This document shows positions 1 to 60,735 of a stretch of DNA of 64,000 bases, one piece after another. Where the stretch lies: positions 2,116 to 66,115 of the forward strand of contig DATNKD010000084.1 in assembly GCA_035603575.1 (NCBI GenBank), given 5' to 3'. A program made the position numbers and the translations under genes. The stretch is from Chthoniobacterales bacterium (GTDB taxonomy: Bacteria; Verrucomicrobiota; Verrucomicrobiia; Chthoniobacterales; UBA10450). Within the stretch, counting starts at the first letter, position 1. Each line of letters starts with the position of its first letter. The notes beneath the pieces were generated by a model. That model was not told the origin of the DNA. It was given only the letters and a program-made list of their open reading frames with translations, and made no database searches.

Positions 1-878
1 AGCCCGAAGATGCGACGACGAACCCGAGTCTGGTTTATGCCGCCACCCAAAAGCAGCAATACACGCATCTGGTTGACGAGGTCTTAGCCGACCGCAAGAA
101 CTCGGGATTGAGCGGCCAGGCGCAAATCGAAGACATCTGCGATCATCTCCTCGTGCAATTTGGCACTGACATTCTTGAAATTGTGCCGGGACGCGTTTCG
201 ACCGAGACCGACGCGCGGTTGTCGTTCGATGTCGAAGGTTCGATCAAGAAAGCGCGGCAACTGATCAAGCTCTACCAGGAACGCAAAATTCCGCGCGAGC
301 GAGTGTTGATCAAGATCGCTTCAACCTGGGAGGGATTGAATGCCGCCGAGCAACTGCAAAAGGAAGGGATCAAATGCAATTTGACGCTGATGTTTTCGCT
401 GCCGCAAGCGGTGCGCGCAGCCGAAGCGAAGGTGCAGTTGATCTCGCCGTTCGTCGGCCGGATTTACGATTGGTATAAGAAAGAGAACAAACGCGATTAC
501 AGCGGCCCGGAAGATCCGGGCGTGCAATCAGTCCAGGAAATTTATTCCTACTACAAAAAGTTCGGTCACAAAACCGAGGTGATGGGAGCGAGCTTCCGTA
601 ACGTCGGACAAATCCGGGAATTGGCCGGTTGCGACGCGCTCACAATCAGCCCCGAGTTAATGAAGGAGCTTGCCGAATCGGAAGCGCCGCTCGAGCGCAA
701 ACTCGATCCCGAAAAAGCGAAGGCCGTGAAGATCGACAAGTTGGAGATGGACGAGAAAAAATTCCGATGGCTGCTGAACGAGAACGCGATGGCGTACGAG
801 AAGACGGGTGAGGGCATCCGCAAATTCGCCGCTGACGTGGTGAAGCTGGAGAAATTCGTCGCCAGCAAACTCAAATAA
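1..878 (+). CDS. tal: Transaldolase (TalB type), 5' end cut by window edge
   Basis: The frame is open from nt 3 ([16 protein letters not shown]...) and runs into listed ORF 108..878. Blocks [34 protein letters not shown] and GASFRN match classical transaldolase B. Confidence 0.9.
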
Positions 879-1082
879 CCGCGGATTGCGCGGATTTAGA
901 CGGATCGGAAAGATCTGGAATCCAGGAATCCCGGAAACGAGAACTGAATTAGGAGAACAGGAACGCAGGAAGGGACCTCAGCAGCGGCATGGTTGCCTGA
1001 TTTTCAGATTAAAATTCCGTTTTCCTGCTTTCCTATCTTCCTGATTCAATCCGAATCCGCGACATCCGCGTAATCCGCGGTT
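877..1082. repeat. About 205 bp imperfect palindromic element filling the tal-trmL spacer
   Basis: Terminal arms AACCGCGGATTGCGCGGAT (877-895) and ATCCGCGTAATCCGCGGTT (1064-1082) are 18/19 complementary. The interior halves (ggaatccaggaa.../...ttcctgctttcct) are also roughly complementary. Confidence 0.7.
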
Positions 1083-1090
1083 GAAATTTT

Positions 1091-1561
1091 GTGTTTAATG
1101 TCGTTTTAGTTGAGCCGGAGATTCCGCCGAATACCGGGAACGTCGGTCGGCTTTGTCTCGCGACGAAATCGACATTGCACCTGGTGAAGCCGCTCGGTTT
1201 TTCGCTGGATGATCGACAACTGAAGCGCGCCGGTCTCGATTACTGGGAAGATGTCGATCTAAAAGTATGGGAGTCGTTGCAATCGACGCTCACCGAAGCG
1301 AAGCGGTCGGACTGCCGCTGTTTCTTCGTAACGACCAAGACAAAGCGAGCTTACTGGGAGGTTCAATTCCAGGCCGGTGATTTTTTGATTTTCGGGCGGG
1401 AAACCAAGGGATTGCCCGAGAGCCTGCTAGCGGCGAACGAGCCCCGGTGCATCACCATTCCAATGGCGGGCACACGGAGTTTGAACCTGGCCACAGCCGT
1501 CGGAATTGTGCTTTTTGAGGCAATCCGACAGCAACACCTCCTGCGAACTGGTGTTGAATAG
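1091..1561 (+). CDS. trmL: tRNA (cytidine/uridine-2'-O-)-methyltransferase TrmL (SpoU family)
   Basis: The N-terminus VVLVEPEIPPNTGNVGRLC, plus KRAGLDYW and SLNLATAVGIVLFEA, closely parallels E. coli TrmL/YibK. GTG start. Confidence 0.85.
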   Translation: MFNVVLVEPEIPPNTGNVGRLCLATKSTLHLVKPLGFSLDDRQLKRAGLDYWEDVDLKVWESLQSTLTEAKRSDCRCFFVTTKTKRAYWEVQFQAGDFLIFGRETKGLPESLLAANEPRCITIPMAGTRSLNLATAVGIVLFEAIRQQHLLRTGVE

Positions 1562-1610
1562 TTAACGGTCTTAAGATGTCTAACTAACCCAGGAGGCAAT
1601 AGAATCTATT

Positions 1611-2788: not shown

Positions 2789-3457
2789 TTGTCCGTGCAG
2801 CCGCAGCTGATCGCCCGCGATTTATTCCAATCTTTCCGGATGGGTTCGCGCCGGATCGAGGTCTTGCGCGGCATCTCGATCGAAGTCGCGCCCGGCGAAA
2901 TCATTTTCATTTGCGGCGCGTCGGGCGCGGGAAAAACAACGCTGCTTTACACGCTGGCTGGGCTGGAGCGACCGGAATCGGGCACGGTGGAATTTGAAGG
3001 GCGCAATCTTTACAACGGTCCGGCAGCTGCCGGAGCGCGCTTTCGCAACAAAAAGATGGGTTTCGTGTTCCAAGGCTACTTTTTGTTGCCGGAACTGACC
3101 GCGCTCGAAAATGTTTCGCTCCCGGGAATGATCGGCCGGACATCGACAGAAAAAGCGGCCGAAGAAAGTCTGGCCGCGGTCGGTTTGGCGGATCGGATGC
3201 AACATTTGCCGGCGGAACTTTCGGGAGGGGAACAGCAACGCGTGGCGATTGCGCGCGCGTTGACGAATGATCCCGATATTATTTTTGCGGATGAGCCTAC
3301 CGGCAATCTCGACTCCGCGACCGGCGAGGCGATTGTCGATCTTTTGTTGAACCTCGCTCGCGAACGCAAGAAAAGTTTGCTGATTGTCACCCATGACACC
3401 GGCCTTGCCACGCGAGGCGACCGTGAGCTGCACATCAAGGATGGCCGGCTCCAATAA
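2789..3457 (+). CDS. ABC transporter ATP-binding protein (LolD/FtsE/MacB-type)
   Basis: Walker A GASGAGKTT, signature LSGGEQQRVAIARAL, Walker B IIFADEPTGNLD. TTG start. Confidence 0.85.
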   Translation: MSVQPQLIARDLFQSFRMGSRRIEVLRGISIEVAPGEIIFICGASGAGKTTLLYTLAGLERPESGTVEFEGRNLYNGPAAAGARFRNKKMGFVFQGYFLLPELTALENVSLPGMIGRTSTEKAAEESLAAVGLADRMQHLPAELSGGEQQRVAIARALTNDPDIIFADEPTGNLDSATGEAIVDLLLNLARERKKSLLIVTHDTGLATRGDRELHIKDGRLQ

Positions 3458-3517: not shown

Positions 3518-4486
3518 ATGAAAACCACTAATGCTGGCGGGACGGTGATCGACGAACCTAAATCACGCGAAGCGGTAAAACCGGCGGTCGATAAACGCAC
3601 CGCGGCGAAGGTTTCGCAGATTTATGTCGACGGGAAATTTTATGCGGAGGCCGATGCCAAAGTTTCCGTGTTCGATCACGGCCTGCTTTATGGCGATGGA
3701 ATCTTTGAGGGGATCCGTTTTTACAACGGCCGCGTTTTTCGACTGGATGAGCACCTCGAGCGGCTTTGGGATTCGGCCCGCTCCATTTTGTTGGAAATAC
3801 CGATGTCGCAGCGGGCGATGACCGAAGCGCTGCTGGAGACGATTCGGCAAAACGATTTGCGGGAAGGTTACATTCGTCTGCTGGTAACGCGCGGTGTTGG
3901 CAACCTTGGTTTGAATCCGGAGCAGTGCAAAACGCCGAGCGTGATCATCATCACCGCTCAAATCACGCTTTATCCTGAGGCGGTTTATCGAAATGGACTC
4001 AGCGTGGTCACGTGCGCCACGCGCCGGACAAATCCGAGCGCGCTCAATCCGGCGGTCAAATCGCTCAATTATTTGAACAACGTGATGGCGCGGATTGAGG
4101 CCAACCTCGCCAAGGCCGATGAAGCGCTGATGTTAAACGACGAGGGCAATGTGGCGGAATGCACGGCCGACAACGTCTTCATCGTTAAACGCGGCCAAAT
4201 TTTCACGCCGCCGATCACCGCCGGCGCATTGCGCGGGATTACCCGCTCGGTCGTGTTCGAAATCGCCGCCGAGACCGGAATTAAAGTGACCGAAGCTGAC
4301 ATTACGCGTCACGATGTTTTCATTGCGGACGAAGCTTTTCTCACCGGCACGGCCGCGGAGATTATTCCGGTGGTCAAAGCCGACGGCCGTCCGATTGGCA
4401 CAGGCAAACCCGGCCCGATTACGGCGCGGATGATTGCGCGATTCCGGGAAATGACGAGAGAGACCGGGACGCCGATTTATTCGTAA
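3518..4486 (+). CDS. ilvE: Branched-chain amino acid aminotransferase (class IV PLP enzyme)
   Basis: Class IV aminotransferase pattern: FDHGLLYGDGIFEGIR, YIRLLVTRG, NYLNNVMA and FLTGTAAEIIPV. The roughly 35 aa N-terminal extension makes the start uncertain. Confidence 0.85.
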   Translation: MKTTNAGGTVIDEPKSREAVKPAVDKRTAAKVSQIYVDGKFYAEADAKVSVFDHGLLYGDGIFEGIRFYNGRVFRLDEHLERLWDSARSILLEIPMSQRAMTEALLETIRQNDLREGYIRLLVTRGVGNLGLNPEQCKTPSVIIITAQITLYPEAVYRNGLSVVTCATRRTNPSALNPAVKSLNYLNNVMARIEANLAKADEALMLNDEGNVAECTADNVFIVKRGQIFTPPITAGALRGITRSVVFEIAAETGIKVTEADITRHDVFIADEAFLTGTAAEIIPVVKADGRPIGTGKPGPITARMIARFREMTRETGTPIYS

Positions 4487-4565
4487 GATCGACATCGGCG
4501 CGAAAGGTGCTCGATAAATTCGCAGCTTGAATGGTTTAAGCGTGTAACAGGTCTAATGTGTAGAA

Positions 4566-5057
4566 ATGTTGTGCGACGTTTGTAAATGCAATGACGCGAC
4601 CGTCTTCCTGACTCAAATCATTGAGGGGAAGATGCAGAAGGTGAATCTCTGCGACGCGTGCTCGAAAGACAAAGGCGTCCAGGACCCGACTGGTTTTGCG
4701 CTCGCGGATTTGCTCCTCGGCATCGGCGCGGCGGAGGAAATTGAAAAGGGGGGCTCGACCCAGCGCTGCCCGGTTTGCGGTTTTACCCAGGCCGATTTCA
4801 AAAAGACGGGCCGTCTCGGCTGCAGCGCCTGTTACGCGACCTTTACCGAAGCGTTAACCGCACTATTGAAAGCAATGCACAAAGGGACAGCGCATGTCGG
4901 CAAGGTTCCGCAACGGGCGCATCGCGCGGGAGAGTTGAGCGATAAGATGCGCAATTTGAACGAAAGCCTGCAAAAAGCAGTGGCGGAAGAAAATTACGAG
5001 ACGGCCGCGTCGTTGCGCGACCAAATCAAACAACTCGAGAGCGAACTAGCGACTTAG
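4566..5057 (+). CDS. mcsA: McsA-like protein-arginine kinase activator (Cys-rich N-terminus plus UVR motif)
   Basis: CDVCKC...CDAC and CPVCG...CSAC zinc-finger pairs. C-terminal UVR-like EENYETAASLRDQIKQLE. Sits immediately upstream of mcsB. Confidence 0.8.
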   Translation: MLCDVCKCNDATVFLTQIIEGKMQKVNLCDACSKDKGVQDPTGFALADLLLGIGAAEEIEKGGSTQRCPVCGFTQADFKKTGRLGCSACYATFTEALTALLKAMHKGTAHVGKVPQRAHRAGELSDKMRNLNESLQKAVAEENYETAASLRDQIKQLESELAT

Positions 5058-5061
5058 AACC

Positions 5062-6183
5062 GTGAAATTTTCGAATGTCATGTCGAACGCCGGAGAATGG
5101 CTCCGTGGCGAGGGACCGCATCATCAAATCGTAGTCAGCAGCCGGGTGCGGCTCGCGCGTAACTTGCGCGACCGCGCTTTTCCCGGTTGGGCGAAGAAAG
5201 CCGAGCGCACTGCGATTCTTGAGCTGATTAAACCGCACGTAGAAAAACTTCCCGAAATGCAGGATTCATTTTCGGAATTGCTGCAGGACCTTTCCGCGTT
5301 GGAAAAACAGGTGTTGGTCGAGCGCCACCTCATCAGTCGCGAGCACGCGGCCAAAAGCGCCGGCAGCGCAGTGATCATGAATCGCCGGCAAACGCTCAGC
5401 ATCATGATCAACGAGGAAGATCATCTCCGGATGCAATCAATGCGCTCGGGTCTGCAACTGAAACAAGCCTTCAAACTTCTCGATAGGATCGACACCGCGC
5501 TCGAGAACGAGCTCGAATTCGCCTACGACCAGCGCCTTGGTTATCTGACCGCCTGCCCAACGAATGTCGGCACCGGTATGCGCGCGTCCGCGATGCTCCA
5601 TTTGCCCGGTTTGGTCCTGAGCGAGCTGATCAATCAAGTGGTTCAAGCGGTGAGCAAGATCGGTCTGGCCGTGCGCGGTCTTTATGGCGAAGGCACCGAA
5701 GCGATGGGAAATCTTTTCCAAATTTCCAACCAGACCACGCTCGGCGAAAAGGAAGACGAGATTATCGCCCGGCTCACCAAAGTCATCGAGACGATCATCG
5801 AAAAGGAACACGACGCGCGGCAGGTTTTGATTCAAAAGAAATCGAACACGCTTTGGGACCAGATCGGCCGCGCCTATGGCGTTCTAACTTACGCGCATGC
5901 GATGAGCTCGAAAGAGGCGCTCAATTTGTTGTCCATCATCAAGCTCGGCATCGATCTAAACGTCTTTCCGGAAGAGAAGCGGCTGCCAATCGATGAATTG
6001 TTCATGGACACGCAGCCGGCGCATCTCCAAAAAAGTTCGCAGCAAAAACTCAACGCCGAGGAACGCGACCATCTTCGCGCGCAAATTATCCGGGCGCGTT
6101 TGAAAGTGCTCCCCAAACCTGATATCAGTAAGCTGGCGATGGACTCCGGCAACGGCTCGAGTGCGGCGCCATCGGAACAATGA
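5062..6183 (+). CDS. mcsB: Protein arginine kinase McsB (ATP:guanido phosphotransferase)
   Basis: EEDHLRMQ, GYLTACPTNVGTGMRASAMLHLPGL and GLYGEG are guanido-kinase catalytic blocks. Confidence 0.9.
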   Translation: MKFSNVMSNAGEWLRGEGPHHQIVVSSRVRLARNLRDRAFPGWAKKAERTAILELIKPHVEKLPEMQDSFSELLQDLSALEKQVLVERHLISREHAAKSAGSAVIMNRRQTLSIMINEEDHLRMQSMRSGLQLKQAFKLLDRIDTALENELEFAYDQRLGYLTACPTNVGTGMRASAMLHLPGLVLSELINQVVQAVSKIGLAVRGLYGEGTEAMGNLFQISNQTTLGEKEDEIIARLTKVIETIIEKEHDARQVLIQKKSNTLWDQIGRAYGVLTYAHAMSSKEALNLLSIIKLGIDLNVFPEEKRLPIDELFMDTQPAHLQKSSQQKLNAEERDHLRAQIIRARLKVLPKPDISKLAMDSGNGSSAAPSEQ

Positions 6184-8648
6184 ACAATTTTACTCCTCGC
6201 GCCCAACAGGTCTTGCAGCTCGCTCGCAAAGAAGCCGACCGCTTCAATCACAATTATGTCGGCACCGAGCATCTGTTGCTCGGATTGATCAAGCTCGGCC
6301 AGGGCGTCGCGGTCAACGTTCTCCAGAAAATGGGACTCGATCTCGAGACCGTGCGCATGGAAGTCGAGAAGCAAGTCGGCTCCGGTCCGGAAACGAAAAT
6401 TGTCGGCAACATTCCTTACACGCCGCGCGTGAAAAAAGTTTTGGCGCTCGCCGGCAAGGAAGCGAAGGCGCTTAATCATTCCTACGTCGGCACCGAACAC
6501 ATTTTGCTCGGCCTGCTTCGCGAAGGCGAAGGCGTCGCCGCACGGGTCCTCAAGAGCCTGGAGATCGACATCGAACGCACGCGCAACGAGATCTTAAAAG
6601 AACTCGATCCAAATTTCACGCCGTCGGAAGCTGAAGAAGGCGAGCCGACTTCAAAGAAGGATGTCAAAACTCCGGCGCTGCGCGCGTTCGGCCGTGACCT
6701 GACCGAGCTGGCCAAGAAAGGCGAGCTCGATCCCGTCATTGGACGCCGCAACGAAATCGAGCGCGTGATTCAGGTGCTCTGCCGGCGCACGAAAAATAAT
6801 CCGGTGCTGATCGGTGAGGCTGGCGTCGGTAAGACCGCGATCGCGGAAGGTCTCGCACAAGAAATTGCGAGCGGCAATGTGCCCGAGCTCTTGCGCGACA
6901 AGCGCGTGGTCACGCTCGATCTCGCGTTAATGGTCGCGGGCACAAAGTATCGCGGCCAATTCGAAGAGCGCATCAAGGCGGTGATGGACGAAATTCGCCG
7001 TTCCAAAACCGTCATTCTTTTCATTGACGAGTTGCACACGATTGTCGGCGCTGGTTCAGCCGAGGGTGCGATGGACGCGTCGAACATCATTAAGCCGGCG
7101 CTGAGTCGCGGCGAATTGCAATGCGTCGGTGCGACCACAATGAACGAGTATCGCAAATACATCGAGAAGGACGCTGCGCTCGAGCGCCGGTTCCAAACCG
7201 TGAAAGTCGATGCCCCGACCGTTGACGAAGCGATTGAGATTTTGAAAGGACTACGTCCGAAGTACGAAGCGCATCACAAAGCCAAATTGACCGACGAAGC
7301 GCTCGAGACCGCCGTGAAGTTTTCCGAGCGCTATATCACTGGACGTTTTCTGCCTGACAAAGCGATCGACGTCATGGATGAGGCCGGAGCCCGCGCCCGG
7401 ATTAACTCGATGACGCGGCCGCCGGATGTGAAGGAAATCGAGAAGGACATCGAACAAATTCGCCTGCAAAAAGAAGCCGCAATTAAAGCGCAGGATTTCG
7501 AAAAGGCCGCTGCGCTTCGTGACAAGGAAAAGCAGACCAAGGAAAAACTCGATTCCATTTTGCAGAAATGGCGTCAGGAGCGCGAAGAAAAGGAAGTGCT
7601 CGTCACTGCCGACGACATGATGCACATCATTTCGAAAGTGACCGGCGTTCCGCTCCAGCGAATGGAGCAGGCCGAGACCGAGAAGCTCCTCAAAATGGAA
7701 GAGGAGTTGAAAGGCAAAGTGATTGGTCAGGACGAAGCCGTCACCGCGATCTCCAAAGCGTTGCGCCGCAGCCGGGCCGACCTGAAAGATCCGCGGCGGC
7801 CGATCGGTTCGTTCATTTTCCTCGGGCCGACTGGAGTCGGCAAAACGTTTCTCGCCCAGAAGCTCGCCGAATTCATGTTCGGCGACCGCGACGCACTGAT
7901 TCAGATCGACATGTCTGAGTACATGGAAAAATTCACCGCCTCGCGTCTGATTGGATCGCCACCGGGTTACGTGGGCTACGAGGAAGGCGGTCAGCTTTCC
8001 GAAGCGGTCCGGCGCCGGCCGTATTCGGTTGTGCTTTTCGACGAAATCGAGAAAGCGCATCCGGACGTGATGCATCTCCTCCTCCAAATTCTCGAAGAAG
8101 GCAAAATCACCGACTCGTTAGGCCGAAAGATCGATTTTCGGAACACGATCATCATCATGACGTCGAACGTTGGGGCCGAGCTGCTCAAGAAACAGACAAC
8201 GATGGGTTTCGGCGCGCCGCGTGAAGGACACGATTACGATTCGATGCGGGAAAAGATTTTGGAGGAGACCAAGCGCATCTTTAAACCGGAGTTTCTCAAT
8301 CGCCTCGACGAGATCACCGTCTTCCACTCGCTCGAGAAGTCGCATCTCCTTCAGATTGTCGATCTTGAGGTGGAAAAGGTGAAAGTTCGCCTCAAAGCCA
8401 AGGAAGTGGAGATTATTCTCGACAACCTGGCGCACGAGTTCGTGATCGAAAAAGGTTACGATCCGAATTACGGCGCGCGGCCGATGCGGCGGGCGGTGGA
8501 GCGTTTTCTCGAAGATCCGCTCGCGGAAGAAATTCTGCGCGGCAACGTCAAAGCTGGCGCCAAGGTTCAGGTCAGCGCAAAAGATGGAAAACTTGTTTTC
8601 CAAACCGAGGTGACGAAAAAGAAACTGGCGGAGCCGATCGCTGACTAA
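6180..8648 (+). CDS. clpC: ATP-dependent Clp protease ATP-binding subunit ClpC
   Basis: Two Clp_N repeats ([11 protein letters not shown] twice), two AAA+ modules ([17 protein letters not shown]), and a UVR-like linker. Overlaps the mcsB stop. Confidence 0.95.
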
Positions 8649-10535: not shown

Positions 10536-10643
10536 GTCATCCGGAGCGGAGCGAGGGATCTCGCAGTCGGAGCCTCGATCACACAAGGTAGTTAGAGTGG
10601 TCAACGAACTTATGGGAGATCCCTCACATTCGTTCGGGATGAC
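10536..10643. repeat. Inverted pair of GTCATYCYGAGCG...GGATCTC units
   Basis: GTCATCCGGAGCGGAGCGAGGGATCTCGCA (10536-10565) faces TGGGAGATCCCTCACATTCGTTCGGGATGAC (10613-10643). Confidence 0.65.
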
Positions 10644-10655
10644 AGCGAGCCAAAA

Positions 10656-11564
10656 TCAGGCGCGCGGATGCGCTTCGGCGTACGCTTTCTTCAAGCGCTC
10701 GACCGTTACGTGGGTGTAAATTTGCGTGGTCGAAAGACTGGCGTGGCCGAGCAACGCCTGCACGCTGCGCAGGTCCGCGCCACGATCGAGCATGTGGGTG
10801 GCAAAACTGTGGCGAAGCTTGTGCGGACTAATCGAAATCGGGATCGAAGTGTGCCGCAAATAACGTTTCAAGATCAACCAGATCGAGCGCGACGAAATCC
10901 GTTTCCGCGATTTACTAATGAAGAGCGCTCCGGAATGCACGTTCGCGGCGGAGCGATATTTTGAGATCGCTTCCAGCGCGGGCGCGCCAATTGGGCAAAC
11001 GCGCTCTTTCCGGCCTTTGCCAAAAACGCGCACCGACTCGGTGTAAAGATCGACATCTTCCACGTCGAGGGCGGCCAGTTCGCTCAATCGCAATCCGCTG
11101 CTGTAAAAAAGTTCCATGACCGCGACGTCGCGCAGCGGCATCCATTCTGGCGCCGCGCGTTGCTTCGCCACCTGCAACGGCGCGCTCAACAGTTCTTCGA
11201 TTTGTTGGCGGGTCAGGACGAGTGGAAGCTTTCTCTCGACCTTCGGGAGTTGCAATTGCCGCACCGGATCAATTCGAAGTTTCTTTCGGTCGGTCAGGAA
11301 CTTGTAAAACGCGCGCAGCGCTGAGAACTGCAAGCGCACGTAGGAACGCGCCTGGCCGCGCTTCATGATCGCGAAAAGATAATCGCGAAAATCGTCCGCC
11401 GTGCATTTCTTCCACGGCTTTTGGTTTTGCCTGCGGAACGCGCCCAGTGCGTGCCGATAAGCCTTCAGTGTTCGCGGCGACGCGTTTCGTTCGACCGCGA
11501 GATAACGCAAAAACTCTTCCGCGAGATTGTCTTTCTTTGATGCCGCGGTTTGGCCTTTTGTCAT
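10656..11564 (-). CDS. Tyrosine recombinase, XerC/XerD family
   Basis: ELFYSSGLRLSELAAL, HKLRHSFATHML and LLGHASLSTTQIYTHV carry the catalytic R..HxxR..Y set. No flanking att-like or phage genes. Confidence 0.85.
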   Translation of the reverse strand: MTKGQTAASKKDNLAEEFLRYLAVERNASPRTLKAYRHALGAFRRQNQKPWKKCTADDFRDYLFAIMKRGQARSYVRLQFSALRAFYKFLTDRKKLRIDPVRQLQLPKVERKLPLVLTRQQIEELLSAPLQVAKQRAAPEWMPLRDVAVMELFYSSGLRLSELAALDVEDVDLYTESVRVFGKGRKERVCPIGAPALEAISKYRSAANVHSGALFISKSRKRISSRSIWLILKRYLRHTSIPISISPHKLRHSFATHMLDRGADLRSVQALLGHASLSTTQIYTHVTVERLKKAYAEAHPRA

Positions 11565-11642: not shown

Positions 11643-12140
11643 TCAAAATTGCGGCTCCGGTTTCTCGATCATGTAGCGGGTCTGACCTGCGTCAGCCCGG
11701 CCGCTCATCTGGGTTCTGAAAATCGCCGGCGGATTGGTTGAGATCACTTCGTAATCCTTCAGGATAAATTCCGGATACACCCGATTGCTCGCCGGCTCGT
11801 AGACTTTGTCGCCGCTAAAGTTGCCGTAAAGCTTGTATTCGTAATTGTTGTCCGAGCCGAATTTTAGCGCGGCACGGTCAGGCGCGAGTTTTTGTTTTTC
11901 ATTCAACATCACGAGCTGCGCCGTGCTCCAGGGCTGGTTCGGTCGCCGGATATATCCCCAAAACTTGAAGTCCGGTTTGAAATATCGCCGCCCGATGTAA
12001 TAATCGCCCGCCGGCTCGGCCGCGATCCGTTGAGCCATGGCGACCTTCGCGTTTTGAATGCCTGTCGGCTCCGTTTGGCAACCGGCCAGAAAAAGAAGCG
12101 CGGTCGCGAAGAAAACCGGTTTTGCTCGCAAGATCGACAT
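11643..12140 (-). CDS. Lipoprotein, unknown function
   Basis: Signal peptide with lipobox MSILRAKPVFFATALLFLAGC. The start codon lies inside a copy of the 10-mer. Confidence 0.6.
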   Translation of the reverse strand: MSILRAKPVFFATALLFLAGCQTEPTGIQNAKVAMAQRIAAEPAGDYYIGRRYFKPDFKFWGYIRRPNQPWSTAQLVMLNEKQKLAPDRAALKFGSDNNYEYKLYGNFSGDKVYEPASNRVYPEFILKDYEVISTNPPAIFRTQMSGRADAGQTRYMIEKPEPQF

Positions 12141-14103: not shown

Positions 14104-14162
14104 AGTTCGGCGTTTGACACAAACGCCGCTACAACAATGCTAAGATCGACAATCAACCTTTA

Positions 14163-37857: not shown

Positions 37858-37881
37858 TGTCGATCTTGCGCGGAGGAATAA

Positions 37882-49421: not shown

Positions 49422-50096
49422 TTGAGAATGTCGGCGGTCGATCCAAATCTGCAGGCCGCTCCTGCGTCTGATCCTGACGTGGCGACCTCGGAAAAATCCA
49501 CGACGAGTGCGGTCGAACTTGAGCCGGGCGCGCCGAGCGATGTCGATCTTATGTTGGGCATTCAATCGGGCGACGCGGACGCGCTTTCCCAACTCTATGA
49601 TCGTTACAACGGGATCGTGAAGGCGCTCATTTTGCGCATCATTCACAACGATACCGAGGCGGACGACCTCCTTCAGGAAGTGTTCATGGAAATTTGGAAT
49701 CGGGCGAAGAATTTCTCCGCCGAAAAGGGAAAACCGCTAGGCTGGATGGTGACATTGACCCGGCGGCGAGCGATAGACGCGTTGCGCAAGAAACAGGCTT
49801 ACAACCGGGCCGAAGAACGTCTCCAAGCCGAGCCCCAGCAGCAACCTGTTGCCTGGGTGCGAAATGTCACTGAGATGGAGATTCGAGCCGGAGATACCCG
49901 GGTTTTGATGGCCAAAGTGATCAATTCTCTCCCGGAGGCCCAGCAGCGGGTGATCGAACTTGCATTTTTTCAGGGGATGAGCCAGCGCGAAATCGCTTCT
50001 AATACGAATATACCTTTGGGCACGGTAAAAACCCGGCTCGAATTAGGCTTGAAAAAGATATATGACGGTTTGAAGGAGTTGAAAGATGAGCTTTGA
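49422..50096 (+). CDS. ECF (sigma-70 family group 4) RNA polymerase sigma factor
   Basis: Region 2 (DLLQEVFMEIWNRA) and region 4 (MSQREIASNTNIPLGTVKTRL). The ATG at 49428 is an alternative start. Confidence 0.85.
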   Translation: MRMSAVDPNLQAAPASDPDVATSEKSTTSAVELEPGAPSDVDLMLGIQSGDADALSQLYDRYNGIVKALILRIIHNDTEADDLLQEVFMEIWNRAKNFSAEKGKPLGWMVTLTRRRAIDALRKKQAYNRAEERLQAEPQQQPVAWVRNVTEMEIRAGDTRVLMAKVINSLPEAQQRVIELAFFQGMSQREIASNTNIPLGTVKTRLELGLKKIYDGLKELKDEL

Positions 50097-51192: not shown

Positions 51193-51645
51193 TCAAACTG
51201 TGGCGTCGACAAGAATTCGCCCTTGAACGACTTGCATTCTCCGCGCGCTTCTTTCATTTCGATCATCGAAGCCGTGTAAGTGGAGCAAACCGTGGACCAC
51301 GTACAAGCGCAGCTCACGCGCGAGAGCGTTTCCGAACCGTCCGGCATTACGCCGCGCAGTCTCGGCGCTGATGAAAATTTCGCCGTGCTGAAATGTGATC
51401 ACGTCGGTTGGTCCTGATTCGCTCATGAATTGTCGATGCAACGACGCGATCTTCCGATCCGAGACAATCAAAACCGAAATCTCGCGCAGCTGCGCCAGAT
51501 CCGTCTTCTTTTTCCGCGGCACACGAAGACATAGCCCGAGTGCCTTTCGCGCGAACTTCTCAAGATCGACAACGCCCACCGGTACTTTGCGCTGAAGATT
51601 GCGCACGGTGATTTTCGGGACCCCAGCGTCAATCTTAGGTTTCAT
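51193..51645 (-). CDS. ybeY: rRNA maturation endoribonuclease YbeY
   Basis: TDVITF... and the zinc motif HGLLHLHGFDD. Start taken at MKPKID, which overlaps the panE stop. Confidence 0.85.
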   Translation of the reverse strand: MKPKIDAGVPKITVRNLQRKVPVGVVDLEKFARKALGLCLRVPRKKKTDLAQLREISVLIVSDRKIASLHRQFMSESGPTDVITFQHGEIFISAETARRNAGRFGNALARELRLYVVHGLLHLHGFDDRNERSARRMQVVQGRILVDATV

Positions 51646-52568
51646 CGCAACCGCCGTACGTTGTCTAATTGCTTGAGAAGCGCGTAAATCATTTCCGTTC
51701 GCTGCATCTGCCCGCCGGCAGCAACCGCACGGCGCGACGGTTCTCCCCAAATCGGCTCGATCTCCAGTGGGCGACCGGCTTCCCAGTCGAGCAACGTTGA
51801 AGGTTTATATCCGCCCATCGTTTCCGTTCGCTCGATATGTTCACGCCAGGCATCGCTCGCCAATGCGTGGCCGCATTTATTGGCGGCCGCGATCACTTCG
51901 TCCATCAACGCGAGCGTCGCCTGTCGCAAATCTTCATCGCCAACTATCGCAGCAATGTCGATTCCGCCCGCTAAGATCGACAATCCGTTGAACGGAATGT
52001 TCCAGATCAGTTTGCGCCAGCGCTCGAGCGCGAGATCGTCGGTAATGTTGCAAGTCACTCTGCCCCGCGTGAATTCAGCAGCGACTTCGCGCGTCCGCGA
52101 TTGTGAGGCGCGCCCGAATTCGCCCAAAACAATGTGACCGTAGGCGTAACGCTCGATCTCTGTCCTCGATCGTCGATTAAGGGCGATGAAGCAGAGTCCG
52201 CCCAGCACGCGTCCGGCGCCGAACTGTTTCGCCAGAAATTCGTCGTTTCCCAAACCGTTCTGTAACGTTAGCAACATCGTTCGCTCGTCCAGCAGCGGCG
52301 GGACAAGATCGACTAGATCGGAATTTGAAGTCGCCTTGACCGCAACGATCACCAGATCGCACGCGCCAATCTCTTTGGTCGAGTTGTAGCAATTGATTTT
52401 CGCGACCTGGAAATTTTCTCCCTCACCGCGAACGAAGATGCCGTCGCGCCAGAGGTCGCTAAGATCGCCGCGCATCAAAAAGTGCACGTCGCTGCCTGCG
52501 TGGGCGAGTTTTGCGCCGTAGTACGACCCAATCGCTCCCGAACCCACGATTGCAATGCGAAGCCCCAT
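51642..52568 (-). CDS. panE: 2-dehydropantoate 2-reductase
   Basis: IAIVGSGAIGSYYGAKL Rossmann motif, LQNGLGN, and the ApbA C-terminal domain (KPSTLLDWEAGRPLEIE). Confidence 0.85.
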   Translation of the reverse strand: MGLRIAIVGSGAIGSYYGAKLAHAGSDVHFLMRGDLSDLWRDGIFVRGEGENFQVAKINCYNSTKEIGACDLVIVAVKATSNSDLVDLVPPLLDERTMLLTLQNGLGNDEFLAKQFGAGRVLGGLCFIALNRRSRTEIERYAYGHIVLGEFGRASQSRTREVAAEFTRGRVTCNITDDLALERWRKLIWNIPFNGLSILAGGIDIAAIVGDEDLRQATLALMDEVIAAANKCGHALASDAWREHIERTETMGGYKPSTLLDWEAGRPLEIEPIWGEPSRRAVAAGGQMQRTEMIYALLKQLDNVRRLR

Positions 52569-52657: not shown

Positions 52658-53938
52658 TCACGTTGGGGGTCTCTGTTCTGATTGGAAATTTCGCGTAATC
52701 AGGCGCGCGCCTTTGTTGAAGCTGAAATAGGCCCAGGCCCACTGGAAAAGAACTGCGAGGCGATTGCGAAACCCGACCAGAAAAATGACGTGGACAAACA
52801 ACCATGCCAGCCACGCTGGGATTCCGCTAAGATGGATCAATTTGAGATCCGCCACGGCTTTGTTGCGGCCTATCGTCGCCATGCTGCCTTTGTCGAAATA
52901 CCAAAATCGTTGCGGCTTTCGGCCGTTGATCATTGCCAGAATGTTGCGCGCCGCGTGACGACCCTGTTGCATCGCAACCGGCGAGACGCCAGGCAACGGC
53001 TGACCGGTTTGATGCGAGAAATTCGCCAGATCGCCGATTACTTGAACCTCCGGATGATCGGGAATGGTCAGATCTTTATTCACGATCACACGACCGACGC
53101 GGTCGATTGGCGCGCCGAGTGAATGGCCGACAAACGAGGCATTATTGCCGGCCGCCCAGATTTTGACGCGACAAGGAATGAATTCGTCGCCGACTTGCAG
53201 ACCTTGCTCCGAGAGATTGGTCGCGTGAATGCCGGTACGCACTTCGACGCCAAGATCGACAAGTTGTTTCATCGCGCTGATCTGTAAATCTTCCGGAAAG
53301 GCGCCGAGCACGTGCGGCTCGCCTTCGACCAGAATCACTCGCGCCTGAGACGGGTCGATGTGGCGGAAATCTTTCGCCAGCGTGTAACGCGCGATTTCGG
53401 CGATCGCGCCCGCCATCTCGACACCAGTCGGCCCGCCGCCAATCACGACAAAAGTCATCGCAGTCTTACGTGCCGCCTCGTCAGAAATTTTTTCGGCGTA
53501 TTCGAATGCAAGCAGGATGCGACGCCGAATTTCCACCGCGTCTTCCAAGCTCTTGAGGCCGGGCGCAAGTCTTTCCCATTCCGGATGGCCAAAATACGAG
53601 TGCCGCGCGCCCGTCGCGACAATAAGATAATCGTAATCAAGCTCGCCATCGACCATCTTCACTTTCTTGGCATTCACGTCGATCGATTCCACTTCAGCGA
53701 GAATCACCTCCATGTTTTCGCATTTGCTCAGAATTGCGCGTACTGGCGCGGCGATATCAGCCGGGGAAAGCGCCGCGGTCGCGACCTGGTAAAGCAGCGG
53801 TTGAAAGAGATGGTAATTCGTCCGGTCGACCACGGTGACTTGGACGGCTTCACAGCAGAGTTTCTTGGCCGCCTCGAGTCCGCCAAACCCGGCGCCTATA
53901 ATCACAACGCGTGGTTTTTGGTTCGACGGCGCTTCCAT
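52658..53938 (-). CDS. ndh: Type II NADH dehydrogenase (NDH-2)
   Basis: VVIIGAGFGG and VVIGGGPTGVEMAG dinucleotide motifs, at the typical 426 aa length. Confidence 0.9.
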   Translation of the reverse strand: MEAPSNQKPRVVIIGAGFGGLEAAKKLCCEAVQVTVVDRTNYHLFQPLLYQVATAALSPADIAAPVRAILSKCENMEVILAEVESIDVNAKKVKMVDGELDYDYLIVATGARHSYFGHPEWERLAPGLKSLEDAVEIRRRILLAFEYAEKISDEAARKTAMTFVVIGGGPTGVEMAGAIAEIARYTLAKDFRHIDPSQARVILVEGEPHVLGAFPEDLQISAMKQLVDLGVEVRTGIHATNLSEQGLQVGDEFIPCRVKIWAAGNNASFVGHSLGAPIDRVGRVIVNKDLTIPDHPEVQVIGDLANFSHQTGQPLPGVSPVAMQQGRHAARNILAMINGRKPQRFWYFDKGSMATIGRNKAVADLKLIHLSGIPAWLAWLFVHVIFLVGFRNRLAVLFQWAWAYFSFNKGARLITRNFQSEQRPPT

Positions 53939-54444: not shown

Positions 54445-54581
54445 TGCACGATGTCGATCTTGCGCGGAAGTTTCCTCTCCGTCAGGGGCTATGGATTGAG
54501 GACTGACGAACCCCGCCAGGGCAGGAATGCAGCAACGGTAGTTTGATCCTCCTTGCCGTAGTTCTCTGGCGGACTTCTTCT

Positions 54582-55005: not shown

Positions 55006-56124
55006 ATGAATAAGGAGCAGCAACTGCGCTATTCGCGCCACATGATCATGCCGGAGGTGGGAGCGGAGGGGCAACGTCGTTTGAACGCCGCGCGCGTTTT
55101 GTGCATCGGCGCGGGCGGGCTCGGTTCGCCGGCCGCACTTTATCTTGCCGCTGCCGGCATCGGCAAACTTGGTCTGGTCGATTTCGACGATGTCGATCTT
55201 AGCAATTTGCAGCGGCAGATTTTGCACGGCACAAAGGACGTCGGCCGGAAGAAATTGGATTCGGCTCGAGATCGATTGCGGGACGTGAATCCGAACATCG
55301 AGATCGAAACGCACGACTGTCGGTTCACGAGCAAGAATGCGCTCGAAATTGTCTCCTGTTATGACGTCGTGGTAGATGGCTCCGATAATTTTCCCACGCG
55401 TTATTTGTCCAATGACGTCTGCGTTTTTGCGAAAAAGCCGAACGTTTACGGATCGGTCTTTCGGTTCGACGGTCAAACGACTGTTTTCGCGCCGCATCTG
55501 GGCGGACCCTGTTATCGTTGTTTGTTTCCCGAGCCGCCGCCGCCGGGATCGGTTCCAAATTGCGCGCAAGCGGGCGTGCTCGGCGTCCTTCCCGGAATCG
55601 TCGGAACGATTCAGGCGAACGAAGCGATCAAATTAGTTTTGGGCGTCGGTGAGCCACTAGTCGGCCGGCTCCTCTATTTCGACGCGCTCAAAATGAAATT
55701 CCGCGAGTTCAATCTCCGGCGCGATCCGCAATGTCCGGTCTGCGGCGATTCGCCCACTATCACCGAGCCGATAGATTACGATCAATTCTGCGGAGTCGCA
55801 ACGAACGTCCCGACCGTTTCGGTGCGCGAACTAAAACAGAAACTCGACGCGCGCGAGTCGCTTCAGCTTGTCGATGTTCGCGAACCGCTCGAGCACGAGA
55901 TCGCAAACATCGACGGCGCGCAGCTGATTCCGTTGGGCGAATTACCCGATCGGTTGAACGAATTGGACCGCAATCGCCTGACGATTGTGCATTGTCACAG
56001 CGGGATGCGCAGCGCGCAGGCCGTGCGGTTATTGCGCGATGCCGGTTTCCCGAACGTGTTTAATCTCGAAGGCGGAATCGCCAAATGGTCGGACGAAATC
56101 GATTCGGACGTCCCGAAGTATTAG
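55006..56124 (+). CDS. moeB: Molybdopterin-synthase adenylyltransferase MoeB/ThiF with C-terminal rhodanese domain
   Basis: RYSRHMIMPEVG, IGAGGLGSP, CxxC pairs (CYRC, CPVC), and rhodanese IVHCHSGMRS. Confidence 0.85.
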   Translation: MNKEQQLRYSRHMIMPEVGAEGQRRLNAARVLCIGAGGLGSPAALYLAAAGIGKLGLVDFDDVDLSNLQRQILHGTKDVGRKKLDSARDRLRDVNPNIEIETHDCRFTSKNALEIVSCYDVVVDGSDNFPTRYLSNDVCVFAKKPNVYGSVFRFDGQTTVFAPHLGGPCYRCLFPEPPPPGSVPNCAQAGVLGVLPGIVGTIQANEAIKLVLGVGEPLVGRLLYFDALKMKFREFNLRRDPQCPVCGDSPTITEPIDYDQFCGVATNVPTVSVRELKQKLDARESLQLVDVREPLEHEIANIDGAQLIPLGELPDRLNELDRNRLTIVHCHSGMRSAQAVRLLRDAGFPNVFNLEGGIAKWSDEIDSDVPKY

Positions 56125-57487: not shown

Positions 57488-58405
57488 GTGCCGAGCAGAC
57501 TGATTACTCGAATCGCGCCCGACGTCGGCTGGCTTCCGGTGAGTTTTGCGAATGTTTATTTCATCGGACGTCCGGGCGGCAAATGGGTCCTGATTGACGC
57601 GGGATTGCCGGGATGGGCGGCGGAAGTTTTTTCGGCGGCCGAAGCACGATTCGGCGCCGGTTCGCGGCCGGAAGCAATTGTGTTGACGCATGGCCGCATC
57701 GATCACGCCGGTTCGGCGTTCGCGCTCGCTGAAATGTGGGACGTCTCGATTTACGCGCATCGCCTCGAGATTCCTTTCTTGACCGGCAAATCACCGTATC
57801 CGCCGGCGGATCCAACCGTTGGCGGCGCGCTCGCATTTCTTTCGCGGTTTTTTCCGCGGCTTTCGCGCGATCTGGGCGCGCGGTTGCGTGAGTTGCGAAC
57901 CCACAAGGTCCCAGGCGCACCAAATTGGGCATGGCTATTTACGCCCGGCCATTCTCCGGGTCACGTTTCATTCTTTCGTGATTCGGACCGTGTTCTTTTG
58001 GCTGGCGACGCTTTTGCCACGGTCAACATGGATTCGTGGAGCGGATTACTGACCGGACGGCGCCAGCTCTCGCGCCCACCGACGCCATTCATAATTGATT
58101 GGAAGGCAGCAAGCGTGTCGGTCCGAGAGTTGGCAACTTTGCGACCAAACGTCGTTGGCTGCGGCCATGGTGTTCCAATTTCCGATTCCGATTTAGCGGA
58201 ACGTCTCCAACAGTTCGCGCAACACTTTCGTGCTCCGCGGCGCGGCCGTTATGTGCGGCAACCGGCGAAGACAGACGAAAAAGGAATTGTCGATCTTCCG
58301 CCAGCGCCGTTCGATCCGGTCCCGTTTGCGACTGCGGCGGCGCTGTTCTGTGTCGGGTTCGCGCTCGGTGCGGGTTATCTCGACGAAAAGCGCCGGCGAG
58401 AATGA
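57488..58405 (+). CDS. MBL-fold metallo-hydrolase (variant metal motif)
   Basis: LTHGRIDHAG sits where HxHxDH is expected. Later TPGHSPGH and GCGHG. Confidence 0.75.
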   Translation: MPSRLITRIAPDVGWLPVSFANVYFIGRPGGKWVLIDAGLPGWAAEVFSAAEARFGAGSRPEAIVLTHGRIDHAGSAFALAEMWDVSIYAHRLEIPFLTGKSPYPPADPTVGGALAFLSRFFPRLSRDLGARLRELRTHKVPGAPNWAWLFTPGHSPGHVSFFRDSDRVLLAGDAFATVNMDSWSGLLTGRRQLSRPPTPFIIDWKAASVSVRELATLRPNVVGCGHGVPISDSDLAERLQQFAQHFRAPRRGRYVRQPAKTDEKGIVDLPPAPFDPVPFATAAALFCVGFALGAGYLDEKRRRE

Positions 58406-59224
58406 TTAGAATTTCGCGCCGCTCGGAATGATCGTCGGCTGCGGCGGCGGCTTCGGTGGTCGCGCATTGATACTTTGATCGATGATGTCCTGGCTAGTTG
58501 GATCGATCAGTCCGCCGCTCGGCGGCGAAGTTTGCTGGTCCTCAATGTCAGCCAGAATCAAGTCCAGTTCCGGCAGCGGGTTCTTGAAGCCCTTGACCAA
58601 TTTGCCGTTTAATAATTTCGAGATGTCGACGTTGAGAACTTGCGGGCAATGCGTCGGATGCGGCGGGAACACAACCATCTGTCCCGTGTGCAAATCGCAG
58701 GGATCTCCGGGAATTCCATTAATTTTTAGCCAACCCTTGCCATGAAGAATGATGAATTTATTCCACGCGTTCGAATGCCGTTCGAAAATCGCGGTGAAAC
58801 CGCTCACCGCGCAGGTCGCGACCGCCGTCGTAATTTTAACGGTTCCTGTTTCTTTCGGGGCCGACATTAAAATCGCGCCGCTGCCGAGGTCGTAAGTACG
58901 CGCGGCTCCGCCAAAGCTGAAAACCGTATTCGCGCCGAGCCGGGTGAGCGTTTGGTCGGTAAACGTTAATTCCGCGCGTGAATCGGTACCGGTGCGAACG
59001 GCCGTTCCTTCGTGGACGGTATCGTTCACGGCGGCGGGATGCGCTGCGGTCTGCGCGCCCAGCAGGCGCACATCATGGATGACTTCCGTCACGCGAGCTT
59101 GCTTTTGCTCGGTCGCAGAAAGGAGTGCGGCAATGCCGACAGCAGTGCCGATTAAAGTTATGGCAGCGACAAGGTTTGAATTTGGGAAGTGAGTTTTCAT
59201 CAGAGTGATTATCGATCTTATCAT
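58406..59224 (-). CDS. FecR-domain secreted protein
   Basis: Signal peptide, then ARVTEV..DVRLL...VHEGTAVRTGTDSRAELTFTDQTLTRLGANTVFSF (FecR-like beta sandwich). Confidence 0.7.
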   Translation of the reverse strand: MIRSIITLMKTHFPNSNLVAAITLIGTAVGIAALLSATEQKQARVTEVIHDVRLLGAQTAAHPAAVNDTVHEGTAVRTGTDSRAELTFTDQTLTRLGANTVFSFGGAARTYDLGSGAILMSAPKETGTVKITTAVATCAVSGFTAIFERHSNAWNKFIILHGKGWLKINGIPGDPCDLHTGQMVVFPPHPTHCPQVLNVDISKLLNGKLVKGFKNPLPELDLILADIEDQQTSPPSGGLIDPTSQDIIDQSINARPPKPPPQPTIIPSGAKF

Positions 59225-59763
59225 GGCCCTTGACCCGGGTCACCGAGCGGTGGGGCATTGGCCAATGGTTGCGGATTCTTTGCGCCAACGCTGCCGAAAG
59301 TTCCACTGCTGGCCGGTGCGCCGGTTCCTCCAAAACCGAAATAGTTTGGATTATTCGTGAAAACATCCGCCTGTTGAGCCGAATTGATCGTGACGACGCC
59401 GCCCGCGGCTTTCGGCACGCGCAAGAGCATCGCGCCGCTGGCCAGATCGAGATTGCGGGTTCCTTCGTCGAAACTGAAAATTGTGCTTGCGCTGAGCCGC
59501 GCCAGAACCTGGTCGGCAAAGGTGAGCTCCGTGCGTGAATCCATCCCTGTCTGCACGCTGCTGCCGTCGGGCACTTTATCGTTTACCGATGCGGAGTGCG
59601 GCGCAGTTTGCGCCGCATGCAATTGCACTTCATTGACTATTCGCGTGATGATCGCTCCGTTGGGGTGCGCCGCAATTGTCGATCTTGCCGCCGCAATCAA
59701 CGACAGCAGAACGACGCCCGTCCCCACGAGCCCCGGGCGCGTGCTTTTGATTGCCCTTTTCAT
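59221..59763 (-). CDS. FecR-domain secreted protein (shorter paralogue)
   Basis: ITRIVNEVQL...VPDGSSVQTGMDSRTELTFADQVLARLSASTIFSF parallels the downstream gene. Overlaps its start. Confidence 0.65.
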   Translation of the reverse strand: MKRAIKSTRPGLVGTGVVLLSLIAAARSTIAAHPNGAIITRIVNEVQLHAAQTAPHSASVNDKVPDGSSVQTGMDSRTELTFADQVLARLSASTIFSFDEGTRNLDLASGAMLLRVPKAAGGVVTINSAQQADVFTNNPNYFGFGGTGAPASSGTFGSVGAKNPQPLANAPPLGDPGQGP

Positions 59764-59769
59764 GTTGCC

Positions 59770-60735
59770 CTAAAATTTCGCTTGAAGCGCGACCGCGCCG
59801 CCGACGTTCGCGACGTTGTAATCGAACACGTCCTTGTTCGAATCGCTGTGCGCGAACGAGCTGATCGCGCTGATCGAGCACCAGTTCGTCAGGCGATAGG
59901 TGGCCGTGGCCGAAAGAATCTCGCTCACATCGGTCCGGCCGTTTTGGTGATAATCGCGCGCGACCACGCGCCCGACCGCGTTGATCGTGAACGCGCGGGT
60001 CAGGCTCACCGAGTAACCGACGTAACCTTCGTAGTCATTCCGACGCGGGCTCTGGTGGTCCGCGGCTACACTAATGTTCGCGTCCGCTCCGACCGAAAGC
60101 TGCTGCGCCCGGCTGAACCGGAATGGCAGCTCGGCATTAAAGATCAGCGCGTGATTCGAGAAAAATTCGTCCCCGAGCCGGTCATCAAAAGTCAGACGAT
60201 TAAAATCGTATTCGCCGCGGAGAATGAGATTGTGAAATTGGGGCAGGAAATAACTCAAGCCCGCTTCAACATCAAGGCTTCCGAAATCGAACGCGTGGTT
60301 ATCGCCGTAATAAAAAACTTGCTCCCGGGCACCGATGTTGCCGTAAAGCGTTTTTGTGATCCGCGGCTGGTAGTAAACCGCCGCCATCGGCGCCATGACC
60401 ACGTCGCTCATCTCACCGCGACGCGTCAGCGCGACGTTCGACGTGTAAAATATCGGGCACGCGAGCGACGCCGTGAACGGCTGATACTCGGTCGTCCGCT
60501 TGAGAACTTCCTGCTCTCCAATGTCGGCATCGTTTGGACTCGCCGCAGCATGTCCGTCTTCGACGCCTTCCGGAGTCGGCGACGTTCCGAACGGCGGCTG
60601 GGTCTGGCCCTGAAGCAGTGATGCACGATCGACATCTTGCGAAGTCGGCCCTTGGGCAAAACTTGGCTGCGCCAAGATCGACATTACCGCCGCGCAAACG
60701 AACGCGACTAGAATTTTAAAATGAATTTTTGCCAA
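59770..60735 (-). CDS. Putative outer-membrane beta-barrel protein
   Basis: A TTG start gives signal peptide (M)AKIHFKILVAFVCAAVMSILAQPSFAQG. The body has alternating beta-strand pattern and a C-terminal ...LQAKF. The upstream ORF-track extension was discarded. Confidence 0.55.
   Translation of the reverse strand: MAKIHFKILVAFVCAAVMSILAQPSFAQGPTSQDVDRASLLQGQTQPPFGTSPTPEGVEDGHAAASPNDADIGEQEVLKRTTEYQPFTASLACPIFYTSNVALTRRGEMSDVVMAPMAAVYYQPRITKTLYGNIGAREQVFYYGDNHAFDFGSLDVEAGLSYFLPQFHNLILRGEYDFNRLTFDDRLGDEFFSNHALIFNAELPFRFSRAQQLSVGADANISVAADHQSPRRNDYEGYVGYSVSLTRAFTINAVGRVVARDYHQNGRTDVSEILSATATYRLTNWCSISAISSFAHSDSNKDVFDYNVANVGGAVALQAKF

Follow-up and report, generated by a model that had tools for sequence, protein, structure and literature searches.

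The 64-kb window analysed here (the whole stretch from 2,116 to 66,115 of the 67-kb contig DATNKD010000084.1, assembly GCA_035603575.1) belongs to a soil metagenome-assembled genome of the order Chthoniobacterales (Verrucomicrobiota); near-identical contigs (99.5%) were found in several soil metagenomes. It is punctuated by a decamer, AAGATCGACA, which is non-palindromic (differing from its reverse complement TGTCGATCTT) and present in 35 exact copies—19 on the plus and 16 on the minus strand, the first at 729 and the last at 60674–60683. These counts reproduce those of a preliminary description of the window, which had taken the decamer for an uptake-signal-like genomic word. It ranks first among all 10-mers, and the leading words of 8, 9, 11 and 12 nt all lie within it or extend it.

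After amendment of the gene calls via Pfam and Rfam, 28 copies lie inside coding sequence and seven lie outside it or on a stop codon. The coding copies divide by frame into 16 V-D-L, four K-I-D, four R-S-T, three S-I-L and one D-R, every one of these numbers as first given. V-D-L copies occupy genes for an ATP-binding cassette (ABC) ATPase (3334–3343, −), clpC (8357–8366, −; on a conserved IVDLE peptide and kept in sister species L007), a xerC/D-like recombinase (11046–11055, +; also kept in L007), FkbM methyltransferase (16104–16113 and 16572–16581, both −), an Amuc_1100-like protein (27034–27043, −), coaE (31693–31702, −) and the RNase D gene rnd (33713–33722, −), the last two exact in relatives L327 and L328. 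The remainder of this group lie in a glcD-like flavin adenine dinucleotide (FAD) oxidase gene (39300–39309, +), fabI (40664–41440, −; copy 41171–41180, +), a TenA/PqqC-family gene (44812–44821, +), an extracytoplasmic function (ECF) sigma factor gene (49541–49550, −), ybeY (51193–51750, −; copy 51562–51571, +), the NDH-2 gene ndh (53252–53261, +) and a moeB/thiF-rhodanese gene (55191–55200, −), both kept in L212, and a metallo-beta-lactamase-fold gene (58288–58297, −; kept in L302).

K-I-D is encoded in the transaldolase gene tal (729–738, +), mlaD (14973–14982, +; present in L329 too), an Amuc_1098-family secretin gene (28890–28899, +; exact in 3/3 ingroup relatives) and the TenA/PqqC-family gene (45090–45099, −); R-S-T in an NAD epimerase gene (18783–18792, +), pilM (26171–26180, +), the glcD-like gene (40206–40215, −; exact in L327 and L306) and a FecR-domain gene (59677–59686, −). 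S-I-L copies include those in panE (51973–51982, +) and a beta-barrel porin-like gene (60674–60683, +), D-R is found in an mlaF-like ABC gene (13312–13321, +), and one copy sits at the start codon of an open reading frame (ORF; 11643–12140, −; copy 12130–12139, +; kept in L007). Beyond the genes, copies adjoin a hairpin element at 2628–2750 (2624–2633, −), overlap the stop codon of a class IV aminotransferase gene (3518–4486; copy 4485–4494, +), lie 12 nt upstream of mlaD (14142–14151, +), upstream of pilM (24601–24610, +), 2 nt upstream of the fabI start codon (41443–41452, +) and in a further intergenic space (37858–37867, −). The seventh, 19 nt upstream of the signal recognition particle (SRP) RNA gene (54480–54574; copy 54452–54461, −), is non-coding and in no protein gene, a small correction.

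The word against null models

Dinucleotide-preserving shuffles of the window contain a mean of 0.21 copies (maximum 2), an enrichment of ~170-fold, and Markov models of orders 1–4 predict 0.2–0.7 copies. The strictest null that we ran, a shuffle of synonymous codons within each gene that preserves protein sequences and per-gene codon usage, yields 1.65 ± 1.2 copies and in 500 runs never more than 6, whereas genes in the window contain 28. The same density of ~1 copy per 1.7–1.8 kb is found in the window, across five species in unbiased loci that total 148 kb (83 copies), and in 388 kb of metagenome loci described below.

The enrichment is confined to near-perfect matches. Relative to the codon shuffle, exact copies are in ~17-fold excess (genes only), one-mismatch variants in 2.2-fold excess and two-mismatch variants at 1.0-fold; a whole-window version of the shuffle gives just 3.8-fold for exact copies, because the unshuffled intergenic copies remain in its null. 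Exact copies in the window (35) narrowly outnumber all 30 one-mismatch variants combined (34, where the preliminary description had counted at least 22). The commonest variants are AACATCGACA and AGGATCGACA, the former found 8 times in the window, one more than the seven initially reported, and 15 times in the pooled 148 kb. Among variants the central ATCG is almost invariant and positions 1–3 and 8–10 are tolerant, with the G of GATC the most replaceable position adjoining the core.

Codon choice inside the word departs from that of the surrounding genes. In the corrected gene set GTCGATCTT spells 19 of 24 V-D-L tripeptides, a spelling for which codon usage predicts 3% because just 15% of Leu codons are CTT; every one of the 22 V-D-L tripeptides in the first gene set starts with GTCGATCT. 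R-S-T copies employ AGA, which makes up 5% of Arg codons, and both disfavoured codons are used specifically inside the word. The proteome carries the imprint as a 3–4-fold excess of V-D-L (22 seen, 6.8 expected from composition; reversed L-D-V, 3) and K-I-D (11 seen, 2.7 expected). Non-coding-strand V-D-L makes up 57% of the window's coding copies; in the pooled set its share is 38% overall and 40% among copies with an assigned frame. Owing to this preference, pooled copies are oriented with the non-coding strand more often than with the coding strand (181 versus 128). Copies occur in five of six reading frames and in intergenic DNA, and coding sequence, 89.5% of the window, holds 80% of them.

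The immediate flanks reproduce the earlier figures exactly, with A or T at +1 in 33/35 copies and C at −1 in 21/35. Pooling 322 copies from independent loci leaves ~0 information content outside −3 to +2; of the flanking positions just +1 is strongly constrained, being A or T in 92%, which makes the word in effect an 11-mer, AAGATCGACAW or AAGATCGACA(A/T). There is no longer conserved unit around it, and it is therefore not the core of a repetitive extragenic palindrome (REP) or miniature inverted-repeat transposable element (MITE); the constant embedding in a longer repeat that the preliminary description had considered is absent.

AAGATCGACA(A/T) is thus a DNA word. It is neither a gene nor a relic of mobile DNA, and no peptide motif underlies it; the preliminary description had already placed the constraint on the DNA, and codon shuffle, tripeptide spelling, frame usage and flank information all agree. 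A by-product of codon or peptide bias might have been suspected from the V-D-L frame, which holds most coding copies, and from the frequent codons GAT, ATC, TCG and GTC, just as the single copy adjoining a REP-like hairpin might have hinted at a mobile element. Against the former stand the in-gene excess over shuffled codons and the targeted use of rare CTT and AGA; against the latter, flanks devoid of information, the 80% of copies inside genes, and orthologous sites that differ by single bases rather than by insertions. Occupancy of five frames and of intergenic DNA fits neither. Codon shuffle, codon spelling, flank information and cross-clade codon alignments together refute the codon, peptide and mobile-element readings, leaving them a negligible probability.

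Orientation, spread and turnover of copies

The balanced orientation reported earlier holds in each of five loci of 16–64 kb (19/16, 4/7, 10/12, 6/4 and 3/2), the locally commoner orientation accounting for 47 of 83 copies; in the window the two orientations are interleaved, with no switch in GC skew. Neighbouring copies keep their distance. No gap in the window is shorter than 272 bp (P = 0.005), and spacing there has a coefficient of variation (CV) of 0.75 (P = 0.045); over the 148 kb of unbiased loci only 2 gaps fall below 250 bp where 11.3 are expected, a value as low being reached in 0/5000 simulations (P < 0.0002). Spacing across these loci is moderately regular (CV 0.6–0.9). Close pairs are otherwise rare, and exceptional tandem pairs 15 nt apart (for example AAGATCGACATCGACAAGATCGACATCG) occur in a lineage of GC 0.58, at L226 17–41 (contig Ga0070741_10000001, 1.6 Mb) and L286 793–817 (contig Ga0070741_10000055).

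A scan of metagenomes for two copies of the word 425–455 nt apart matched at least 120 loci. Among the matches listed, at least 78 have a GC fraction of 0.50–0.60 (nearly all 0.52–0.59), derive mostly from soil and contain further copies; a non-redundant set of 54 loci drawn from those listed (388 kb) holds 323 copies, or ~1 per 1.7 kb with the two seeded copies per locus left out. L252, L299 and L318, which are protein-domain repeats, and a few chance matches of unrelated GC classes were excluded from the metagenome set. Few of the loci overlap the window region and the enrichment is therefore genome-wide, not local: loci of the lineage are as dense as the window, contrary to the confinement to this window that the preliminary description had allowed for. 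Among viral contigs in IMG/VR there were only chance or domain-repeat matches, and no motif-rich contig among those listed. The window has a G+C content of 55.5%, and 54% has been reported for Ca. Udaeobacter copiosus (10.1101/053942); the clade resembles Ca. Udaeobacter in soil habitat and G+C.

Three relatives delimit the word-bearing clade from within: L327 (secretin 82% identical to that of the window), L328 (76%) and L329 (73%) contain 11, 22 and 10 copies, respectively, each in ~22.7 kb, and the word is the top 10-mer in all three. The sister lineages L351 (63% identical; 2 copies in 12 kb), L352 (67%; 1 copy in 13 kb) and L353 (69%; 1 copy in 22.7 kb) have the gene order of the window and no enrichment of the word. 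More distant Verrucomicrobia and other phyla (ClpC at most 79% identical) have no copies in the 7–22 kb examined. The boundary hence separates 73–82% secretin identity, where the word is present, from 63–69% and beyond, where it is not enriched. Other lineages show no counterpart of different sequence: in 79 unrelated or distant loci the top 10-mers reach just 4–10 per 22 kb, as codon bias predicts.

The top 8–11-mers of L351 and L353 are not dispersed and derive from intergenic simple repeats of AATGACGAA and AAATCCCAA units (L353 8954–8968, 15178–15199, 16163–16184 and 20141–20265; L351 4046–4204). Since the frequent words of these sisters are clustered and intergenic, no dialect of the word is seen, L328 flanks aside. 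L328 itself (GCA_041167045.1, JBEEGW010000007.1 75230–97863) has about twice the density of the window (22 copies in 22.6 kb), its copies carrying A at −2 in 12 of 22 cases, compared with 7/35 in the window, and G at −4 in 13 of 22, a preference that may represent a flank dialect. A full-text search for the word matched primers only, and ~7.7 million full texts together with bioRxiv contained no description of it or of any uptake-sequence-like word in Verrucomicrobia. AAGATCGACA(A/T) is best read as a genome-wide 'self' word of one soil Chthoniobacterales clade.

Copies outlast their surroundings. At the 15 window sites that had not been used to find the sister loci, 11 copies are exact in sister species of 76–87% nucleotide identity, compared with 10–27% of background 10-mers (P ~1e-5 by our own binomial arithmetic). 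Losses between species are single-base changes (AAGACCGACA, AAGGTCGACA and AAGATCGAGA), and copies found only in a relative match one-mismatch sites in the window (for example AGGATCGACA and AAGATCGACT). At the secretin site, word-bearing lineages have AAG ATC GAC AAY (K-I-D-N) where the word-less sisters have AAA ATC AAT/GAT/AAC AAY (outgroup versions of the word itself, AAAATCAAT/GAT/AAC). The epimerase copy, with its rare AGA codon, reads xCA AGA TCG ACA (x-R-S-T) in the ingroup and ACA AAA TCG AAG/ACT in outgroups, whose AAA TCG encodes K-S. The ClpC copy falls on the IVDLE peptide common to relatives, so only synonymous changes were needed there. Single-base differences and cross-clade codon alignments show that copies accumulate by point substitution and are then retained: new copies arise singly, through synonymous change, rare codons (CTT, AGA) or conservative amino-acid replacement, and established copies are kept far longer than adjacent sequence.

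Proposed biased transfer and competing explanations

To our knowledge, sequence-specific DNA uptake is confined to two proteobacterial families, the Pasteurellaceae with their uptake signal sequence (USS, AAGTGCGGT) and the Neisseriaceae with the ComP-bound DNA uptake sequence (DUS, GCCGTCTGAA and its dialects). Molecular drive is the accepted explanation of both; the origin of uptake sequences (molecular drive or selected mate recognition) is still debated. Published analyses give USS and DUS as ~1 copy per kb, without orientation bias and largely in ORFs, with significant even spacing—for USS noted by Karlin, as cited there—and enrichment falling stepwise with mismatches (PMC1939737). Uptake sequences roughly double the tripeptides they encode, favour one dominant frame and are scarce in genes without homologues; 39% of the USS of H. 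influenzae are in one frame and 40% are on the coding strand (PMC2817400). The density, the orientation (balanced locus by locus) and the tolerance in coding frames that the preliminary description had likened to USS and DUS agree with these accounts.

The closer likeness is to the USS. Both are asymmetric words of 9–11 nt whose inner core is intolerant of change and whose flanks are weaker, present at ~1 per 1–2 kb in both orientations, mostly in genes and evenly spaced, evolving by point mutation within a family-level clade; both have a dominant non-coding-strand frame (39% in H. influenzae, 38% for the pooled word) and raise their tripeptides at least 2-fold. The sequences are unrelated and the phyla differ, the coding fraction is 80% for the word against 65% for the USS, the extended AT-rich flank motif of the USS is not seen, and for the word an uptake preference and competence are putative. 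With the DUS (10–12 nt, ~1 per kb) it shares asymmetry, clade specificity, a tripeptide imprint and, as far as single loci show, a lack of replication polarity, and the possible flank dialect of L328 recalls DUS dialects (PMC3630211). The DUS, however, lies mostly outside genes (35% in ORFs), often as inverted pairs that serve as terminators, where the word is 80% genic and forms no close inverted pairs (minimum gap 272 bp); no ComP-like pilin was identified in the window, and the word-less sisters L351–L353 carry no variant of the word. DUS are reported to be under-represented in acquired DNA, of which the word gives only a hint.

By these statistics the word appears to be a new case of the lineage-specific, hyper-abundant genomic words of USS/DUS type. 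It shares with them abundance, override of codon choice, a dominant frame and tripeptide imprint, spread through a clade, orthologous sites that are conserved and that turn over by point mutation, and even spacing; a molecular drive powered by sequence-biased DNA transfer is therefore the best explanation, one that we place midway between doubt and acceptance. In such a process word-bearing fragments would be favoured during natural transformation, by the machinery of uptake or by an immediately following step, either directly or through methylation of the word. Homologous recombination would then convert alleles without the word into alleles with it more often than it removed the word. One word per fragment would suffice, which would produce even spacing without clustering. 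That uncultured Chthoniobacterales invented DNA uptake sequences independently, as a third case and the first beyond Proteobacteria, is a more tentative suggestion, for which we claim somewhat less than even confidence.

The window also contains an Akkermansia-type pilus cluster (24678–30992, +), comprising PilM, an Amuc_1100-like protein (26417–27301), an ORF in the Amuc_1099 position and an Amuc_1098-family secretin with TPR repeats. Its gene order is the same in six relatives (L327–L329 and L351–L353), with Amuc_1102 upstream in five. The cluster would supply the outer-membrane secretin that DNA uptake needs, and the preliminary description had counted it as support: secretin and PilM are indeed there, but the cluster is the generic Amuc_1098–1102 type.

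Several observations weigh against biased transfer. The pilus cluster, being generic, is equally present in sister lineages that have no word. Searches of the window and ~717 kb of lineage DNA (6418 ORFs) with crude probes—consensus sequences and regular expressions—found no comEC, dprA, comEA, pilB/pilT or pilins, a result that is uninformative rather than negative because the sample is a minor fraction of the genome. Large polytopic ORFs considered as ComEC candidates resemble, by eye, NuoL/M, permease and glycosyltransferase-like proteins. The literature searched contains no uptake or transformation data for the lineage or, as far as we know, for any verrucomicrobium, and HIP1, the highly iterated palindrome of cyanobacteria, attains comparable statistics without demonstrated uptake specificity. 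The hint that accessory DNA is poor in the word, which would favour biased transfer, comes from one 5.8-kb gap: the longest word-free stretch (18.8–24.6 kb) roughly coincides with a segment (18941–24492) whose gene content differs in every relative, a weak hint since L327 has a 6-kb gap over core pilus genes. Finally, the GC-skew profile carries no replichore information, and the lack of polarity applies per locus only.

HIP1 (GCGATCGC) is the model for the main alternative, an intracellular one, which we judge unlikely while allowing it appreciable weight. Here a clade-specific enzyme (a methyltransferase linked to repair or nicking, or some other DNA-modifying system) would recognise the word, and either repair or gene conversion would be biased towards it or the word would be selected as a modification site, uptake specificity being uninvolved. 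HIP1 is hyper-abundant at comparable density, occurs in all frames, is lineage-specific, long had no known function and includes a GATCG core; the word likewise holds GATC, overlapping TCGA. An abrupt appearance in one clade would correspond to the gain of a single enzyme, and retention with point-mutation turnover suits any sequence-specific drive. HIP1, however, is perfectly palindromic and linked to a methyltransferase of its own, whereas the word is asymmetric and has the G of GATC as its most dispensable core-adjacent position (AACATCGACA being the commonest variant); repair biases of the very short patch (VSP) type are below ~2-fold against >100-fold for the word, and avoidance of close pairs is not predicted. 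Methylation of the GATC core, for which the preliminary description had left room, may play a part. The RAATTY/CtsM methylation tag of Campylobacter transformation shows that a short motif can mark self DNA for uptake and would accommodate a GATC/TCGA core, but RAATTY is a common 6-mer that is not hyper-abundant, in contrast to a 10–11-mer accumulated >100-fold. A 2024 preprint has HIP1 acting through its methyltransferase, which favours an enzymatic basis, and at the same time finds that methylated HIP1 raises natural transformation up to 100-fold (10.1101/2024.09.10.611283), so the intracellular and transfer readings may converge on a self-DNA tag used in transformation.

Regular placement, use of both orientations and genome-wide occurrence would also be expected of a chromosome-organising site, bound by an abundant nucleoid-associated or condensin-loading protein and selected for its spacing; Karlin, as cited in PMC1939737, proposed such roles for the USS for the same reason. 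We consider this improbable. The nucleoid proteins and global regulators known so far recognise degenerate sites, where here 35 exact copies stand against 34 with one mismatch; selection would have to act site by site, overriding codons and altering amino acids at >1000 sites; close relatives whose genomes are syntenic and organised in the same way manage without the word; and its spacing is only moderately regular. A polar signal of the Chi or FtsK-orienting (KOPS/AIMS) kind, read by RecBCD/AddAB or FtsK, is likewise an over-represented asymmetric oligomer in core DNA and core genes. Such signals are strongly strand-skewed, 5–8 nt long and enriched few-fold, whereas the word is 10–11 nt long, ~170-fold enriched and without orientation bias in five loci (47/83), no GC-skew switch masking one in the window. 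The strong polarity by which the preliminary description would have reassigned it to this class is thus missing per locus, and we regard the explanation as very improbable indeed.

Should DNA uptake be confirmed, this would be the first such system outside Proteobacteria and a third replicate for the debate on origin. The lineage would be naturally transformable with a preference for DNA of its own kind, a trait that would matter for gene flow, for the cohesion of species and for what becomes of extracellular DNA in soil, where the clade is abundant in metagenomes. With the word missing from syntenic sister lineages, a search for ingroup-specific genes should lead to the receptor or modifying enzyme. 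The word is in addition a cheap marker for binning and tracking the clade in metagenomes, and an element to add to donor DNA for genetic manipulation of these uncultured organisms. Even with a cause other than uptake, the rewriting of codons and amino acids by a 10-mer at what would be >1000 sites per genome would call for an explanation.

Other elements in the window

Flanked by the epimerase gene and pilM, the variable segment at 18941–24492 is free of the word; among its products are a Pro/Thr/Ser-rich repeat protein (repeats at 19404–19657), a PEP-CTERM-like protein (21833–22426, by eye) and a 506-residue polytopic membrane protein; 0/6 ORFs tested there have a Pfam match. The hairpin beside the copy at 2624 is a REP/MITE-like intergenic element of ~125 nt, present at 2628–2750 and, inverted, at 10536–10657. 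With terminal inverted arms (GTCATTCCGAGCG..CGAGGAATCTCCCA and TGGGAGATCC..GCTCAGGATGAC), it folds into one long hairpin of about −55 to −57 kcal/mol, and related copies occur elsewhere in the lineage (L326 3561–3671 and L281 9541–9567).

ClpC is encoded in a McsA–McsB–ClpC operon (4566–8648) of a UVR-domain protein, an arginine kinase and ClpC itself, an arrangement best known from Firmicutes and syntenic in this verrucomicrobial lineage. The SRP RNA gene (+) is overlapped by a spurious 90-residue ORF, and a tRNA-Lys(CTT) gene lies at 62878–62951 (−). The ORF 61277–61708 contains a 180-nt tandem duplication (61335–61712; 91% identical, period 198). Downstream of the gene for a peptidoglycan-binding protein, a GC-rich hairpin followed by a T run (2549–2580, ATCGCCGCGGAGTTTTCCGCGGCGATTTTTTT) resembles an intrinsic terminator, with partial look-alikes at 13006 and 41189.

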